64,000 bases of DNA from Polaromonas sp. UBA4122 (GCF_002381615.1 NZ_DFWY01000078.1:21268-85267); one strand, 5' to 3'; positions 12,555 through 60,847 are shown, counted from the stretch's first letter. Made by a program: numbers and translations. Notes: generated from the sequence alone by a model not told the origin.

Positions 12555-12709
12555 GCCCCCACGCTTGTCGCTTCGCGTACTGCGCTGCCCCCCGAGGGGG
12601 CTGTGCTTGCTTGGGGCTGCCCTGCGCGGCGCACTTCGGCCCCCACGCTTGTCGCTTCGCGTACTGCGCTGCCCCCCGAGGGGGCTGTGCTTGCTTGGGG
12701 CTGCCCTGC
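12555..12709 (+). repeat. family B repeat, two identical 71-bp copies (12555-12625, 12639-12709)
   Basis: GCCCCCACGCTTGTCGCTTCGCGTACTGCGCTGCCCCCCGAGGGGGCTGTGCTTGCTTGGGGCTGCCCTGC twice with a 13-bp spacer, between convergent genes. Confidence 0.95.
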
Positions 12710-12740
12710 CGAAAATTGCAGTGCCTTTGCAGGCTGTGAC

Positions 12741-13751
12741 TTAAAAAATCTGCAGGCTGACCCAATAGGCAATCGCCGCCACGAAGGCGGAGGCGGGAAT
12801 GGTAAAAATCCAGGCCCAAACAATCCTGCCGGCTACGCCCCAGCGCACGGCTGAGGCCCGCCGCGTGGAGCCCACGCCCACAATGGCGCCCGTGATGGTG
12901 TGTGTTGTGGACACTGGAATGCCCAGCGCGGTCGCCAGAAACAGCGTCAACGCGCCACCGGTTTCAGCGCAAAAACCGCCCACGGGCTTGAGCTTGGTAA
13001 TTTTCTGGCCCATGGTTTTCACAATGCGCCAGCCGCCAAACATGGTGCCCGCCGCAATGGCGAGGTAGCAGCTCACAATCGTCCAGGTGGGTGGCGAAGC
13101 GTCGCTGGACGAGACATAGCCGGTCGCGATCAGCAACATCCAGATAAGGCCGATGGTTTTCTGCGAATCGTTGCCGCCGTGGCCCAAACTGTAAGCCCCT
13201 GCAGATACGAGCTGAAGGCGACGGAACCAGCGATCAACCTTCGAAGGTGTTGCGCGGCGGCCGACCCACGACACCAGCACCATCATCAGGGAGCCCAGCA
13301 CAAAACCCAGCAGGGGTGATATAAAAATAAAAGCCACCGTCTTCAGAATGCCTCCCGACATCAGCGCTTGGGCGCCGGCCTTGGCAATCACTGCGCCCGC
13401 AATGCCGCCTATCAGCGCGTGCGACGAACTGCTGGGAATGCCGTAAATCCAGGTCGCCAGGTTCCAGGCGATGGCACCCATCAGCGCGCCAAACACCACG
13501 TGCGTATCAACCACGCCAGGCTGGACAATGCCCTTGCCCACAGTGGCCGCCACACTGAGATGGAAGACAAACAGCGCGATCAGGTTAAAAGCGGCTGCAA
13601 ACATGACGGCCTGCCCGGGCTTGAGTACGCCGGTAGACACCACCGTCGCAATCGAATTGGCCGCATCGTGAAAGCCGTTCATGAAGTCGAAGGCAATGGC
13701 CAAAATTACCAGCATGACCACCACCCACAGGGCTGTTTGTGCTGTGCTCAT
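12741..13751 (-). CDS. PiT-family inorganic phosphate transporter
   Basis: GFHDAANSIAT and GHGGNDSQKT signature motifs; ATG at 13751. Confidence 0.96.
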   Translation of the reverse strand: MSTAQTALWVVVMLVILAIAFDFMNGFHDAANSIATVVSTGVLKPGQAVMFAAAFNLIALFVFHLSVAATVGKGIVQPGVVDTHVVFGALMGAIAWNLATWIYGIPSSSSHALIGGIAGAVIAKAGAQALMSGGILKTVAFIFISPLLGFVLGSLMMVLVSWVGRRATPSKVDRWFRRLQLVSAGAYSLGHGGNDSQKTIGLIWMLLIATGYVSSSDASPPTWTIVSCYLAIAAGTMFGGWRIVKTMGQKITKLKPVGGFCAETGGALTLFLATALGIPVSTTHTITGAIVGVGSTRRASAVRWGVAGRIVWAWIFTIPASAFVAAIAYWVSLQIF

Positions 13752-13839
13752 GATTTTGTGCCCTGCACCAGACCACCCCAACAGAAATTGCATCCGCTAG
13801 CGGGACAGATCAGCGACGATGCCGCAAACACGGGAGGCA

Positions 13840-58740: not shown

Positions 58741-58749
58741 AAGACCCGT

Positions 58750-59793
58750 ATGGAATCGCAAACCCTGGATCACTTACCGGATCAGTTAGCCGATCATTTG
58801 CCAGCCCGTCACGACACCGCGCAGTTGATGGAACAAATCCTCTACGAAGTCAAACGCGTGGTGGTCGGCCAGGACTGCTTTCTTGAGCGCGTGATGGTCG
58901 CCGTGCTGGCGCAGGGTCATCTGCTGGTGGAGGGTGTGCCCGGCCTTGCCAAAACCCTCACGGTAAAAACGCTGGCCAACACCATACACGGCGAGTTCAA
59001 GCGTATCCAGTTCACGCCGGACCTGGTGCCGGCCGACCTGGTGGGCACGCGCATCTACAACCAGAAAACCGGCGAGTTCAGCACCTCCCTCGGGCCGGTG
59101 TTCACCAATCTGCTGCTGGCCGACGAGATCAACCGGGCGCCGGCCAAGGTACAAAGCGCACTGCTGGAGGTGATGCAGGAACGGCAGGTGACGATTGCCG
59201 GGGTGACGCATAAAGTGCCGTCGCCTTTTCTGGTGATGGCGACGCAAAACCCGATTGAGACCGAGGGAACCTACCCGCTGCCTGAAGCGCAGGTGGACCG
59301 CTTCATGATGAAGGTGCTGGTGGACTACCCCACCAACGAGGAAGAATTCGTCATCGTCCAGCGCGTCACTGGCCCTGCGGTGGCAGTGTCGGCCGTGGCC
59401 ACCACCGAGCAACTGGCCGCCCTGCAGGCCGAATGCCGGCGCATTTATGTCGACCCTTCGCTGGTGCAGTATGCGGTGCGGCTGGTATCGGCAACCCGGG
59501 ACCCGGCGAGGCATGGGCTCAAGGAACTGGAGCGCTTCATCACCTTTGGCGCCAGTCCGCGCGCCACCATCAACCTGACCGAAGGCGCCAGGGCGCTGGC
59601 CCTGCTGCGCGGGCGCACTTACGCCCTGCCGGAAGACATGACCGACCTGGTGCCCGACGTGCTGCGGCATCGACTGGTGCTGTCTTACGAAGCGCTGTCC
59701 GAAGGACTCTCCGCCGATGCGGTCGTCAGCAAGATCATGGCCAAAATCCCGCCACCCGCCAAACCGCTTGAGCATGAAAAACTTGCCGCCTAG
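58750..59793 (+). CDS. MoxR-family AAA+ ATPase
   Basis: EGVPGLAKT, RIQFTPDLVPAD, LADEINRAPAKVQSALLE, ATQNP. Confidence 0.96.
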   Translation: MESQTLDHLPDQLADHLPARHDTAQLMEQILYEVKRVVVGQDCFLERVMVAVLAQGHLLVEGVPGLAKTLTVKTLANTIHGEFKRIQFTPDLVPADLVGTRIYNQKTGEFSTSLGPVFTNLLLADEINRAPAKVQSALLEVMQERQVTIAGVTHKVPSPFLVMATQNPIETEGTYPLPEAQVDRFMMKVLVDYPTNEEEFVIVQRVTGPAVAVSAVATTEQLAALQAECRRIYVDPSLVQYAVRLVSATRDPARHGLKELERFITFGASPRATINLTEGARALALLRGRTYALPEDMTDLVPDVLRHRLVLSYEALSEGLSADAVVSKIMAKIPPPAKPLEHEKLAA

Positions 59794-60847
59794 AGCTATG
59801 AGCCCCCACGCTCCGCCGCTGCGCGGGTCGCTGCCCCCCGAGGGGGCTGGCCTTGCTTGGGGCGGCCCGGCGCTGCGGCCGCCTCAATCCCTTGCTAGGT
59901 CAGCTCCGGCAGCGGGTGCAGAACAGCTGCTGCGCCGACTGGAATGGACGGTGCTGCGCCGTCTTGACGGGCTGCTGCAGGGCGACTACCGCACGCTGCT
60001 GCGCGGCACCGGCATGGACCTGGCCGATCTGCGTGAGTACCAGTACCACGACGATGTGCGCCACATCGACTGGAACGTGACCGCCCGCCTGCAGCAGCCG
60101 CATGTGCGGGTGTTCACCGAAGACCGCGAAATGAGCGCCTGGTTTTTACTCGACCTGAGCCCGTCGGTGGATTTCGGCTCCGGCGAACAACACAAGCGCC
60201 AGGTGTCGACCGAATTCGTCGCCGTACTGGCGCGCCTGCTGACGCGCCACGGCAACCGCGTGGGTGCCCTGCTCTATGGTTCGGGCGTTGATGCGGTGAT
60301 ACCGGCGCGCGGCGGTCGCCACCATGTGTTGCACCTGCTGCATACCCTGCAAACGCGGCCTGATGCCACTGAGGCTGGCCTTACCCGCCTGAACGAGCTG
60401 CTGCAGTCTGCTGCCAACCTGGTGCGTCGGCGCTCCACCCTGTTTGTGGTGTCTGATTTCATCAGCGAACCGGGCTGGGAAAAGCCTTTGGGCTTGCTCG
60501 CCCAGCAGCACGAAGTGGTGGCCGTGCGCCTGCTGGACCCGCTGGAGCTGGCGTTGCCCGATCTGGGCCTGATTCCGATTTGCGATGTGGAAACCGGCGA
60601 GCAGCTGCTGGTGGACACCCATGATGCGGGCTTTCGCAAGCGCTTTGCGCGCATTGCGGCCCAGCGCGAAGCCGAGTTGCGGCAAGCCCTGGCGCGCGCC
60701 GGTGTCGACACGCTGGAGCTCTCCACTGATGACAACCTGGTCGATGCCATCATGCGTTTCACCGACCTGCGCAAACGCCGCAACCGCTCGTCGGGCGCCC
60801 ATGCGGCAGCAGGCAAGCTGCCCGCCCACTTGAGGCACGCCGCCTGA
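59774..60847 (+). CDS. DUF58 (VWA-like) MoxR partner with repeat-derived N-terminus
   Basis: LADLREYQYHDDVRHIDWNVTAR, LDLSPSV, VVSDF; start at 59774 or 59798. Confidence 0.92.
   Translation: MKNLPPRAMSPHAPPLRGSLPPEGAGLAWGGPALRPPQSLARSAPAAGAEQLLRRLEWTVLRRLDGLLQGDYRTLLRGTGMDLADLREYQYHDDVRHIDWNVTARLQQPHVRVFTEDREMSAWFLLDLSPSVDFGSGEQHKRQVSTEFVAVLARLLTRHGNRVGALLYGSGVDAVIPARGGRHHVLHLLHTLQTRPDATEAGLTRLNELLQSAANLVRRRSTLFVVSDFISEPGWEKPLGLLAQQHEVVAVRLLDPLELALPDLGLIPICDVETGEQLLVDTHDAGFRKRFARIAAQREAELRQALARAGVDTLELSTDDNLVDAIMRFTDLRKRRNRSSGAHAAAGKLPAHLRHAA
59802..59876 (+). repeat. family B repeat in DUF58 N-terminal coding region
   Basis: GCCCCCACGCTCCGCCGCTGCGCGGGTCGCTGCCCCCCGAGGGGGCTGGCCTTGCTTGGGGCGGCCCGGCGCTGC; encodes PHAPPLRGSLPPEGAGLAWGGPAL. 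Confidence 0.9.

Follow-up and report, generated by a model that had tools for sequence, protein, structure and literature searches.

The eight copies of the GC-rich repeat provisionally called Family B in the 64,000-nucleotide stretch of Polaromonas sp. UBA4122 DNA analyzed here (the window) most probably represent the Beta-proteobacterial Repeat Element (BRE), whose in-frame insertion in genes appears to be tolerated. We put the probability of this reading at roughly 80%. A profile HMM built from Polaromonas copies only matched three published Bordetella BRE sequences in reverse complement (B. pertussis and B. bronchiseptica copies, List S1 of PMC3110155) over model positions 2-74, with E-values of 3.7e-12 to 4e-11, and by this sequence criterion the family was already known and is not new. 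The Polaromonas and reverse-complemented Bordetella elements align box for box, with CCCCCACGCT, TGCCCCCC(G/A)AGGGGGC, and CCTTGGG(G)CGGCCCG common to both.

The published description (Hot et al. 2011, BMC Genomics 12:207; PMC3110155) gives BRE a length of about 90 bp (range 75-91 bp), a GC content of 69%, a chromosomal location, and a host range within the Betaproteobacteria that includes Comamonadaceae and above all Polaromonas, the richest genome being Polaromonas JS666 with 29 copies. Units form head-to-tail arrays with few or no bases between them, whose number varies, as in the variable-number arrays of Bordetella, and some copies lie "entirely within coding sequences". In B. pertussis, an approximately 80-nt transcript, the small RNA bprJ1, covers a BRE (PMC3110155). 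The Polaromonas copies agree with this description in size, GC content (around 70%), arrays, chromosomal location, and abundance in Polaromonas, and their 5' box, hairpin 2, and hairpin-3 loop are homologous to those of the published element. They differ from the Bordetella elements, in which the hairpin-3 arms and flanks are T- and A-runs, the hairpin-1 stem is another one, the tandem period is 83-88 nt, most often 83, which is not divisible by 3, and copies are mostly intergenic. The 2011 description does not mention that three hairpins covary, that the unit measures 84/81 nt, how extensive in-frame insertion is, that some frames are preferred, that single sites are hit recurrently, or that copies sit beside stop codons.

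Table 1. BRE copies, host genes, and an empty target site in the window.
Feature	Coordinates	Strand	Remarks
BRE copy 1	12550..12635	+	Intergenic; long-arm type (GTGC...GCAC)
BRE copy 2	12637..12718	+	Tandem partner of copy 1
BRE copy	14586..14668	-	Intergenic; short-arm type (CTTTTCC/GGAAAAG)
Empty BRE target, Ada-AlkA interdomain linker	32496..32525	+	GCGCCCTCGGTC
ogt host gene	33838..34458	+	206 aa versus ~174 aa in empty-site relatives
BRE copy in ogt	33992..34075	-	Antisense reading, residues ~52-79 (SAPLRAAPSKHSPLGGQRITRSEKRGG)
BRE copy	45104..45184	-	Intergenic, degenerate (hairpin 2 decayed); downstream unit of a head-to-tail pair
BRE copy	45187..45285	-	Longer unrelated segment in place of hairpin 1
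UDG-like (MUG/HDG-like) host gene	52979..53572	-	197 aa
BRE copy in UDG-superfamily gene	53081..53164	+	Antisense reading, residues ~137-163 (AGPPQASTAPSGGSALHEVKSVG)
DUF58 host ORF	59774..60847	+	Native ATG overlaps moxR end (stop TAG 59791-59793)
BRE copy in DUF58	59798..59876	+	N-terminal coding region, sense frame (MSPHAPPLRGSLPPEGAGLAWGGPALRP)

All eight copies reported in the earlier note were present at their positions, four on each strand (Table 1). A genome-wide nhmmer profile search returned 83-102 matches in the 4.17-Mb Polaromonas genome, far above chance, 64 of them full length. Of the 102 matches, 33 fell wholly within ORFs, 6 overlapped an ORF in part, and 63 were intergenic; the gene calls came from a simple codon-model caller, so individual ORF-context calls may err. 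Polaromonas units of the long-arm type measure 84 nt and those of the short-arm type 81 nt, both multiples of 3, with a constant 73-nt core and a mean GC content of 71%. The element was found in 35 of 36 Polaromonas species, in 114 of the 150 genera and 115 of the 151 genomes of the family, in 2 of 72,556 plasmid records, and in none of 50,697 phage records. Several copies lie at contig ends, and BRE copies break assemblies.

From its 5' end, BRE, a repeat of non-coding origin, consists of a conserved 5' box (a W-rich leader and GGCCCCCACGC) followed by three hairpins. Hairpin 1 has a covarying stem, hairpin 2 (GCCCCC-CGA-GGGGGC) is nearly invariant, and hairpin 3 presents an invariant loop, TTGGGGCGGCCCGGC, within a hypervariable 6-7-bp stem that is still complementary. 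Pairing of the arms was observed at 89% for hairpin 1, 83% for short-arm hairpin 3, and 94% for long-arm hairpin 3, versus 80%, 62%, and 69%, respectively, when arms were permuted between copies; the permutation maxima were below the observed values. Each hairpin-3 pair is represented by 3-5 Watson-Crick pair types. Constraint on the hairpins is evident from this covariation. The folding energies of single copies were no better than those of shuffled sequences (z from -1.1 to +0.9), so the case for the structure depends on covariation, and the copies compared share a common descent. In some copies the hairpin-3 arms do not match, for example, in copy 2 of the window, in which the 3' arm (GAAAATTGC) is unpaired with the 5' arm, marking it as a chimeric or recombinant copy.

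Part of the fold predicted in the earlier note stands, namely the small covarying hairpin (CGC/CAC...GCG/GTG) and the GCCCCC-CGA-GGGGGC hairpin; the third hairpin had been missed, and what was taken for a terminal GGGCGGCCC is really part of its conserved loop. The proposed outer stem CCCCACGC/GCTTGGGG is seen in some minimum-energy folds and competes with hairpin 3, and both of its strands are invariant, so that covariation offers no test of it. Counts of G·U versus C·A gave no consistent strand signal, and single-stranded DNA, RNA, and cruciform forms are therefore indistinguishable by this measure; the step from the fold to an ssDNA or RNA intermediate is unsupported and stays conjectural.

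The proposal that copies land in real genes, in the manner of Rickettsia palindromic elements (RPE), was borne out. Inserts add 27-28 residues rich in Ala, Pro, Gly, and Ser (30 at ogt), and filled and empty alleles both exist among congeners for ogt, Ada-AlkA, the UDG-like gene, and DUF58. Annotation artefacts, a possibility raised beforehand, do not account for the coding cases: Pfam domains bridge the inserts and relatives have empty sites. A single Pfam alignment bridges the insert in FtsY (SRP54), IcmF (MeaB), Mpl, Edd/IlvD, hydantoinase B, GlnD, and Ogt, and other named hosts with in-ORF copies are RecJ, PriA, and biotin carboxylase. Ogt retains intact Methyltransf_1N and DNA_binding_1 domains as well as the PCHR active site; the insertion site is empty in most Polaromonas species. 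Residues 49-78 of the Ogt AF2 model have pLDDT values below 50 and no secondary structure, with flanking blocks at 88-97, and the insert of this one modelled host is thus predicted to be a disordered loop.

Insertion recurs at the same sites. The UDG-like insert is absent from most congeners, and genomes G008 and G009 carry a sense-oriented copy of exactly 81 nt at the identical codon position; in two genes, the same codon position has been struck independently and in both orientations. DUF58 retains its native start, as in congeners that do not have the element, and its single copy here compares with two tandem 84-nt copies in the same frame in G014. In Polaromonas LC052 (L007), the Ada-AlkA linker, empty in the window, contains a single sense copy of exactly 84 nt, and in L016 it is expanded in tandem by approximately 384 nt. 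New copies are found both at dispersed sites and in exact head-to-tail tandems, and array size varies. No target-site duplication was visible at the Ada, ogt, and UDG junctions, at which boundaries are good to only about 3 nt because the empty sites come from diverged species. The copies that persist in ORFs lie in loops or linkers, where they appear to be tolerated as disordered segments.

The near-identical copies placed at 12555 and 12639 in the earlier note are stop-free on both strands, as it had stated. Its reading of six-frame openness as a special pre-adaptation did not hold, since openness matches GC expectation: all six frames are open in 9 of 61 full-length copies (15%), and the same holds for 11% of dinucleotide-shuffled sequences and for 7% of genomic 81-mers matched for GC. 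Two of the six frames contain stops in over half of the copies and the other four are almost always open, which, together with a unit that is a multiple of 3, means that insertion usually keeps the reading frame. As a possible basis of coding compatibility, the 84/81-nt unit is more promising than the absence of stops. ORF copies mainly use two frames (7 sense, 11 antisense, and 3 other among 21 copies), and the dominant peptides, rich in Ala, Pro, Gly, and Ser, are APTLVAS.TALPPEGA..WGGPA in sense and AGPPQA..APSGGSA.HEV.SVGA in antisense. The ogt, UDG-like, and DUF58 copies are, as had been claimed, in-frame insertions, each in a different one of three frames. Intact frames and conservation suggest that the inserts are translated.

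Intergenic copies are tightly placed at their 5' end: the median distance to a gene boundary, in most cases a stop codon, is 4 nt, and in 28 of 40 copies the distance does not exceed 8 nt. Of the 40 intergenic copies, 27 start shortly past the stop of a gene in the same orientation. At the 3' end, the median distance to the next gene is 65 nt. In the sense frame, 17 of 61 copies have ATG as the junction codon, a figure that rises to 26 of 61 when GTG and TTG are included, and the sense frame is open throughout nearly all intergenic copies. In the window, copy 1 begins 4 nt past the TAA (12547-12549) that ends the co-oriented gene upstream and is the first unit of a head-to-tail pair (12550/12637) with an 84-nt period. 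The copy at 14586..14668 begins 3 nt past the stop of the co-oriented DMT_6 (DUF486) gene (14669-15031), complete by Pfam, and the copy at 45187..45285 begins approximately 6 nt past the stop of the co-oriented gene at 45291-46151.

We propose, tentatively and at rather less than even odds, that BRE is mobilized in trans by a host-encoded enzyme that recognizes hairpins on single-stranded DNA. An enzyme of the Y1/HUH type would fit the asymmetric ends, the subterminal hairpins, the lack of duplication, and the short A/T-rich 5' junction. The invariant hairpin 2 and the hairpin-3 loop could be the recognition sites, with pairing alone required of the hairpin-1 and hairpin-3 stems, and slippage or recombination would then alter tandem copy number. 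Terminal inverted repeats were not found (14-nt ends versus their reverse complements gave 4.78 matches, compared with 4.75 for shuffled ends), and neither a recent transposition event nor an empty allele at the population level was detected. The statement that the window encodes no mobilizing enzyme agrees with zero Y1/HUH transposase matches on its contig. The search for a linked HUH/RAYT transposase, also suggested earlier, tied none to the element: the only RAYT-like gene in the genome (C79:26320-27018), with unique flanks and no BRE within 2 kb, encodes a Y1_Tnp protein of 232 aa that belongs to the domesticated, single-copy type. The end hairpins of the IS200 copy are unrelated to BRE.

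A slightly less probable, and to us doubtful, explanation is that BRE forms a REPIN-like population cut and pasted as single-stranded DNA by this vertically inherited RAYT-like transposase. Its gene is present here and in 140 of 151 family genomes, usually in one copy, BRE is chromosomal and appears vertically persistent, and asymmetric hairpin ends with neither duplication nor inverted ends are like those of HUH-moved elements. However, neither BRE nor any other repeat flanks the gene, BRE is not an inverted doublet of one REP, and the REP tags are absent (GTAG in 1 of 58 copies, CGTC in 10 of 58 at scattered positions); a match to a characterized REP class with a known RAYT, which the earlier note had considered, was not found. 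The gene is also present in genomes where BRE is undetectable, so co-occurrence is uninformative either way. Spread could also proceed with no dedicated enzyme, by template switching or gene conversion through microhomology to the element's own 5' box (TGGCCCCC...), with slippage expanding tandems, and we consider this unlikely. A match to the 5' box follows 17 of 58 copies (about half of these being only partial next units), but none of 62 upstream controls; among random 30-mers the rate is 0.2%. The native target in ogt, TGGCCC (W-P codons), is box-like, as is GCNCCCTCGGTC in Ada, inserts have the exact length of a unit (84 or 81 nt), hairpin-3 arms are mismatched in some copies, and Bordetella has variable-number tandem arrays (PMC3110155). 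Against this, the same site is filled in both orientations, many single copies lack the box-like 3' flank, and microhomology to a GC-rich box predicts neither an A/T-rich 5' junction nor tight stop-codon placement.

The placement beside genes bears on a different question, whether BRE is kept mainly for an RNA-level service to the host, with ORF copies as tolerated by-products; we would give this about one chance in four. Possible roles are a 3'-end stabilizer or terminator, a small RNA such as bprJ1, or a translational-coupling module past stops. The short distance from the 5' end to co-oriented stops, the longer 3' spacing, the junction ATG, and the open sense frame through intergenic copies all favor such a role, as do the 80-nt transcript over a BRE in B. 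pertussis (PMC3110155) and identity of up to 95% across genera. Polaromonas copies nonetheless lack a U-tract for intrinsic termination, occur in both orientations relative to neighboring genes, and have no Rfam match; the sequencing runs that contain this locus are DNA (metagenome) runs only, and an RNA-level role leaves dispersal to approximately 100 loci and insertion into ORFs unexplained. That the repeated peptides are instead a functional protein module spread by selection, rather than a DNA element, is very improbable. Two peptide frames do dominate the ORF copies, but the same DNA is read in both orientations and several frames, approximately 60% of copies are intergenic, conservation tracks the nucleotide hairpins and not residues, and the inserts interrupt unrelated enzyme domains and are modelled as disordered in Ogt. 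The intergenic copies and the use of both strands effectively refute it already.

Taking the copies as BRE, it is conceivable, although we think it improbable on present evidence, that the Comamonadaceae element has evolved into a translation-compatible mobile element, with site-directed machinery re-hitting loop codons in both orientations. The multiple-of-3 unit, loss of the Bordetella A/T runs, the stop-adjacent, ATG-bearing 5' junction, and two "benign" frames may be the traits behind such compatibility. If so, BRE would continually supply loop and linker variation to essential enzymes of free-living bacteria throughout the family. Element movement, repeated loop targeting, and the relevance of the added peptides could be studied in tractable hosts (Polaromonas, Acidovorax, Variovorax, and Delftia). 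BRE also inflates or splits gene calls and creates spurious N-terminal extensions, and recognizing it therefore improves annotation.

Several known repeat systems resemble BRE in part. Classical MITEs (Correia/NEMIS, ERIC) are likewise small, non-autonomous, structured repeats that are occasionally intragenic and can form in-frame fusions, but BRE is without terminal inverted repeats or detectable target-site duplication, and a parental insertion sequence with BRE-matching ends was not found. Mycobacterial interspersed repetitive units (MIRUs) are 46-101-bp operon-spacer units in variable tandem arrays, sited at the stop and start codons of neighbors with an open frame through the unit; they have no homology to BRE, and their mini-ORF overlaps both neighbors, whereas BRE is tightly placed at its 5' end only. 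To our knowledge, MIRUs do not insert inside enzyme domains. REP/REPIN-RAYT systems, reportedly the subject of work by Bertels and Rainey in 2011 and Nunvar et al. in 2010, share GC-rich hairpin repeats that are chromosomal, persist vertically, and number from tens to hundreds per genome, alongside a Y1 transposase-like gene present once in the same genome. Unlike BRE, they are almost exclusively extragenic, and BRE has no GTAG/CGTC tag, no inverted doublet, and no flanking position at the RAYT-like gene.

In-frame "coding palindromes" are usually presented as a Rickettsia curiosity. BRE extends such behavior, at large scale, to free-living culturable Betaproteobacteria, involving a third of the copies in this genome and most genera of the family. 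A 2024 MITE review only speculates on similar protein-shaping elements elsewhere (PMC10969869). As outlined there from the work of Ogata et al. (2000/2002), RPEs are short hairpin repeats that are intergenic and often in frame inside unrelated housekeeping genes, and their conserved added peptide is compatible with the fold of the host protein, as for BRE (PMC10969869). RPEs differ in belonging to an alphaproteobacterial obligate intracellular parasite rather than to free-living Betaproteobacteria and in being longer (approximately 100-150 bp) and A/T-rich, so that composition and lineage give no reason to expect homology with BRE, which is read on both strands. RPEs would be functional analogs of BRE only, both adding in-frame peptides to host proteins.

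Eight related copies of about 80 nt lie in the window where the earlier note had placed its Family B, as both a reading of the sequence and a repeat finder show. An HMM built from these copies gave 83 matches across the genome (4.17 Mb, 59% GC, a draft of 172 contigs), rising to 102 after one iteration, with 64 full length; the eight copies and the 102 genome-wide matches establish the family as real, well beyond chance. Several matches occupy contig ends, which indicates that the repeat breaks the assembly. The reverse complements of the List S1 sequences of Hot et al. 2011 (PMC3110155) align box for box with Family B and are matched by a Polaromonas-only HMM at about E = 4e-12, so that Family B, judged by its sequence, is the already published Beta-proteobacterial Repeat Element (BRE). 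Those authors described BRE as an element of about 90 bp and 69% GC from Bordetella and other Betaproteobacteria, forming tandem arrays, most numerous in Polaromonas sp. JS666 (29 copies) and in some cases "located entirely within coding sequences". No later paper developing this coding aspect was found in the literature searched.

The genome of the window belongs to a Polaromonas. BRE turned up in the genomes of 35 of 36 other Polaromonas species and, at up to 95% identity, in 114 of the 150 genera that were sampled within its GTDB family. By BLAST it was undetected in 23 of 24 other families sampled from the order, one genome giving two weak matches, and it is near-absent from plasmids and absent from phages. 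This breadth across the family is an addition to the published account, as are the covariation of three hairpins, the 84/81-nt unit, the frame bias, the recurrent use of the same codon positions in both orientations in two genes, and the location of the 5' end beside stop codons with a junction ATG.

Coordinates of BRE copies, host loci and other features (plain positions, window, which is C24:21268-85267; C, contigs of the same genome; L, sequences of compared relatives)
Feature	Position	Strand	Remark
BRE copy	12550-12635	+	sequence and repeat finder
BRE copy	12637-12718	+	sequence and repeat finder
BRE copy	53081-53164	+	sequence and repeat finder
BRE copy	59798-59876	+	sequence and repeat finder
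BRE copy	14586-14668	-	sequence and repeat finder
BRE copy	33992-34075	-	sequence and repeat finder
BRE copy	45104-45184	-	sequence and repeat finder
BRE copy	45187-45285	-	sequence and repeat finder
ogt	33838-34458		two methyltransferase domains present; carries BRE
UDG-superfamily gene	52979-53572	-	carries antisense BRE
Ada-AlkA linker	32496-32525		empty allele
Ada-AlkA of Polaromonas MAG RGN.1	L016:973-2959		expanded linker
moxR-DUF58 junction	59793-59951		BRE or hybrid copies also in L104, L106, L107, L111, L113, L120, L121, L123
Hybrid BRE	L009:1557-1632, L016:1342-1416, L104:1296-1369, L113:2600-2675		
Hybrid BRE	L120:1213-1263, L121:1300-1373, L123:1323-1398		
Family A repeat	3741-3806, 19481-19533, 28816-28881, 30081-30146, 46159-46224, 53395-53432		repeat finder
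IS200-type element, intact	C87:1792-2830		CCCCCGGCTTTGCCGGGG hairpins at both ends
RAYT-like Y1 transposase homologue	C79:26320-27018		232 aa (MARLPRL...HH..RGNNRQ)

Alignment of the 64 full-length copies with their flanks resolved BRE into a 73-nt core that hardly varies and, 3' of it, a variable arm. The 5' junction is short and A/T-rich, with the consensus ATAT (A or T at 4.3 of the last 6 upstream bases vs 2.5 expected), and leads into the box GGCCCCCACGC. Hairpin 1, which follows, has a stem that covaries at three pairs (G-C/A-U, U-A/C-G, G-C/U-A); hairpin 2, GCCCCC-CGA-GGGGGC, is almost invariant. Hairpin 3 combines an invariant loop, TTGGGGCGGCCCGGC, with a 6-7-bp stem that stays complementary though nearly wholly different between subfamilies (AACTTGC/GCGTT, TGCTTGC/GCGCA, GCCTTGC/GCGGC, ATTTTCC/GGAAAAT, TTTCGCC/GGCGAAA, TGCCGTC/GACGGCA, CCCCGCC/GGCGGGG). 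RNAalifold was unusable on the mixed alignment because the short-arm and long-arm classes of hairpin 3 misalign, and pairs were scored by hand for each class. Among these copies, which are related by descent, pairing was 89% in hairpin 1, 83% in short-arm and 94% in long-arm hairpin 3, compared with 80%, 62% and 69%, respectively, when arms were permuted between copies; the observed values were never reached in permutations.

The fold first proposed for Family B keeps its hairpins 1 and 2, whereas its "terminal" hairpin is part of the hairpin-3 loop. The proposed outer stem shows up in some minimum-energy folds and, as both of its strands are invariant, lies beyond a covariation test. Single copies fold no better than shuffles (z -1.1 to +0.9), and thermodynamic stability was discarded as evidence for structure, since the z-scores were not significant. 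Counts of G·U vs C·A showed no consistent bias as to the strand of the functional structure, and an Rfam search at gathering and permissive thresholds returned no match. By their pairing, the hairpins are evidently constrained, with ssDNA, RNA and a cruciform all remaining candidates.

Other Polaromonas species carry a hybrid subfamily in which the usual 5' box and hairpins 1 and 2 precede another 3' module, GCTGCGCCTGCGGCCCGGC-AAA-GCCGGTTCCGCGGCC..., translated within ORFs as ...LRLRPGEAGSAAPAG...; the exchange of 3' modules on a common 5' part makes BRE look modular. In the window copy at 45187-45285, hairpin 1 gives way to a longer, different segment (TCTCGTGTCTCCGTTCGTCCTGAGCTTGTCGAAGGA, 45237-45262) between intact element flanks, by nested insertion or by exchange of a module. 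Split and partial matches proved to be nested or deleted copies, not termini of a longer element, and an autonomous parent was rejected on that ground. A second repeat family of about 60 nt, Family A (GCTA...AGCTGCTTG.GCCCGC...GGGCTAGAGG), is unrelated to BRE. One of its copies shares the UDG-like gene with BRE; every congener in the UDG alignment has this segment, which is not the behaviour of a recent insertion at that place.

For gene context we wrote a simple codon-model gene caller, whose approximate calls (3,755 genes, 83% coding) place 33 of the 102 matches inside ORFs, 6 partly overlapping an ORF and 63 between genes; ORF copies are rarer than coding density would give. The hosts are, by Pfam assignment, core enzymes. 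A single Pfam alignment runs across the insert in FtsY (SRP54 GTPase), the IcmF MeaB domain, Mpl, Edd/IlvD, GlnD and hydantoinase B, the last holding two BRE copies; in biotin carboxylase, FdhD and an APH-family kinase the insert interrupts the alignment.

The earlier note had taken the absence of stops from all six frames as pre-adaptation to landing in genes. The near-identical copies at 12555 and 12639 are indeed open in all six, but only 9 of 61 copies are, compared with 11% for dinucleotide shuffles and 7% for genomic 81-mers of matched GC content; openness as an adaptation was rejected against these controls and follows from high GC content. One variant of hairpin 1 contributes a TAA and a TCA that close two of the frames in over half of the copies. 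The 21 full-length ORF copies are read in the sense frame (7; APTLVAS.TALPPEGA..WGGPA), in one antisense frame (11; AGPPQA..APSGGSA.HEV.SVGA) or in another antisense frame (3). A fourth frame, open in 57 of 61 copies, is used by none of the 21, which argues that the bias reflects peptide tolerance or target phase and not the mere absence of stops. Tandem periods are 81 or 84 nt in the genome of the window and 84 nt in about 27 of 28 tandem pairs from other Polaromonas species (recomputed from match coordinates), and clean pairs of filled and empty alleles differ by exactly 84 or 81 nt. Published Bordetella arrays have a period of 83-88 nt, mostly 83 (Hot et al. 2011), a difference that ties the multiple-of-3 unit to the Comamonadaceae lineage, rich in ORF copies, rather than to the entire family.

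With empty sites taken from diverged species, the comparison of filled and empty alleles proposed earlier could be made: the ogt, UDG-like and DUF58 sites filled in the window have empty counterparts among congeners. The ogt DNA between GLWF and HPVLK measures 90-93 nt in empty species, 180 nt in the window and L007 (both with antisense BRE), 114 nt in L021 and L018 (an internally deleted sense BRE) and 216-240 nt in L010 and L009 (a deleted sense remnant plus a second sense BRE). Ogt is about 174 residues long in Polaromonas relatives, and the N-terminal domain alignment of the window protein is stretched to 106 residues for 71 profile positions. In its AF2 model (mean pLDDT 80.5), residues 49-78 score below 50 and lack secondary structure between confident flanks. 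Four metagenome runs yielded no population-level empty ogt allele, all long contigs being filled (near-identical strains). Over window positions 33997-34077, summed contig depth in four soil/peat runs was 100-400x that of the ogt flanks, so BRE-like sequence is very abundant in those communities. A search for RNA runs carrying the locus found none.

The insert position of the UDG-like gene spans 45 nt in most congeners. The window and G021 share an antisense BRE there, and in G017 antisense copies occur in tandem. G008 and G009 hold a sense BRE, which adds exactly 81 nt at the codon position occupied by the antisense copy of the window; G012 has an apparent remnant. DUF58 of species lacking the element has a start ATG that overlaps the moxR stop. 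The window retains this ATG (59774) and reads from MKNLPPRA through BRE into the conserved AEQLLRRLEW, and two 84-nt units share that frame in G014. BRE or hybrid copies at the moxR-DUF58 junction of at least eight other Polaromonas species, intergenic in some and inside the DUF58 ORF in others, make it a third site, besides ogt and the UDG-like gene, to be occupied repeatedly. The Ada-AlkA linker, empty in the window, is filled in L007 with exactly one 84-nt sense BRE. In L016 it contains about 384 nt of in-frame tandem BRE-derived units, or about 128 extra residues between the Zn-binding and HTH domains, and represents an extreme case of linker expansion.

Outside ORFs, the 5' end of BRE lies a median of 4 nt from a gene boundary (8 nt or less in 28 of 40 copies) and the 3' end a median of 65 nt from the next gene; 27 of the 40 come after a co-oriented gene's stop codon, and some others adjoin a divergent start codon. 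Of 61 copies, 17 have ATG as the sense-frame junction codon and 26 have a canonical start, and the sense frame is open through nearly all intergenic copies, sometimes running into the downstream gene. At C39:4919, C45:10755 and C98:23055, where the C98 copy starts with ATG, this frame is in phase with genes for a YbgC-like thioesterase, UppS and a KdsC-like phosphatase; these are possible N-terminal extensions or gene-caller traps.

Native insertion targets resemble the 5' box of BRE, which is itself matched just after 17 of 58 copies and in none of 62 upstream controls; in about half of the 17 the next unit is only partial. Terminal inverted repeats and a GTAG/CGTC tag are absent from BRE, and no target-site duplication is visible at its junctions, whose boundaries are imprecise. 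The asymmetric ends, subterminal hairpins, invariant recognition-like segments and lack of duplication would fit movement by an enzyme whose substrate is a single-stranded hairpin. Template switching, with the 5' box as its seed, is still a serious alternative, and slippage likely changes tandem copy number whatever the mobiliser.

For a single-strand hairpin enzyme, a host Y1/HUH protein is the obvious candidate, though the linked HUH/RAYT transposase that the earlier note proposed looking for did not emerge: nothing ties either homologue in this genome to BRE. The IS200-type tnpA was rejected because the end hairpins of its element are unrelated to BRE. Short matches to those ends on C88, C144, C40, C57, C73 and C96 may be another small family of solo ends. 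The RAYT-like gene, just upstream of a large ORF of 1,580 aa, has flanks unique in the genome. It occurs in 140 of 151 family genomes, usually as one copy and at 31-81% identity, with or without detected BRE. Its link to BRE was set aside because of the unique flanks and because co-occurrence across the 151 genomes is uninformative; its single-copy distribution is the pattern expected of a domesticated transposase.

Apart from the six-frame argument, which fails against controls, the likeness to Rickettsia palindromic elements (RPE) suggested for Family B is largely right. A 2024 review of MITEs (PMC10969869) treats RPE as an extreme case and only speculates on other bacteria. Compared with REP-type repeats, BRE copies within ORFs are far commoner than is usual.
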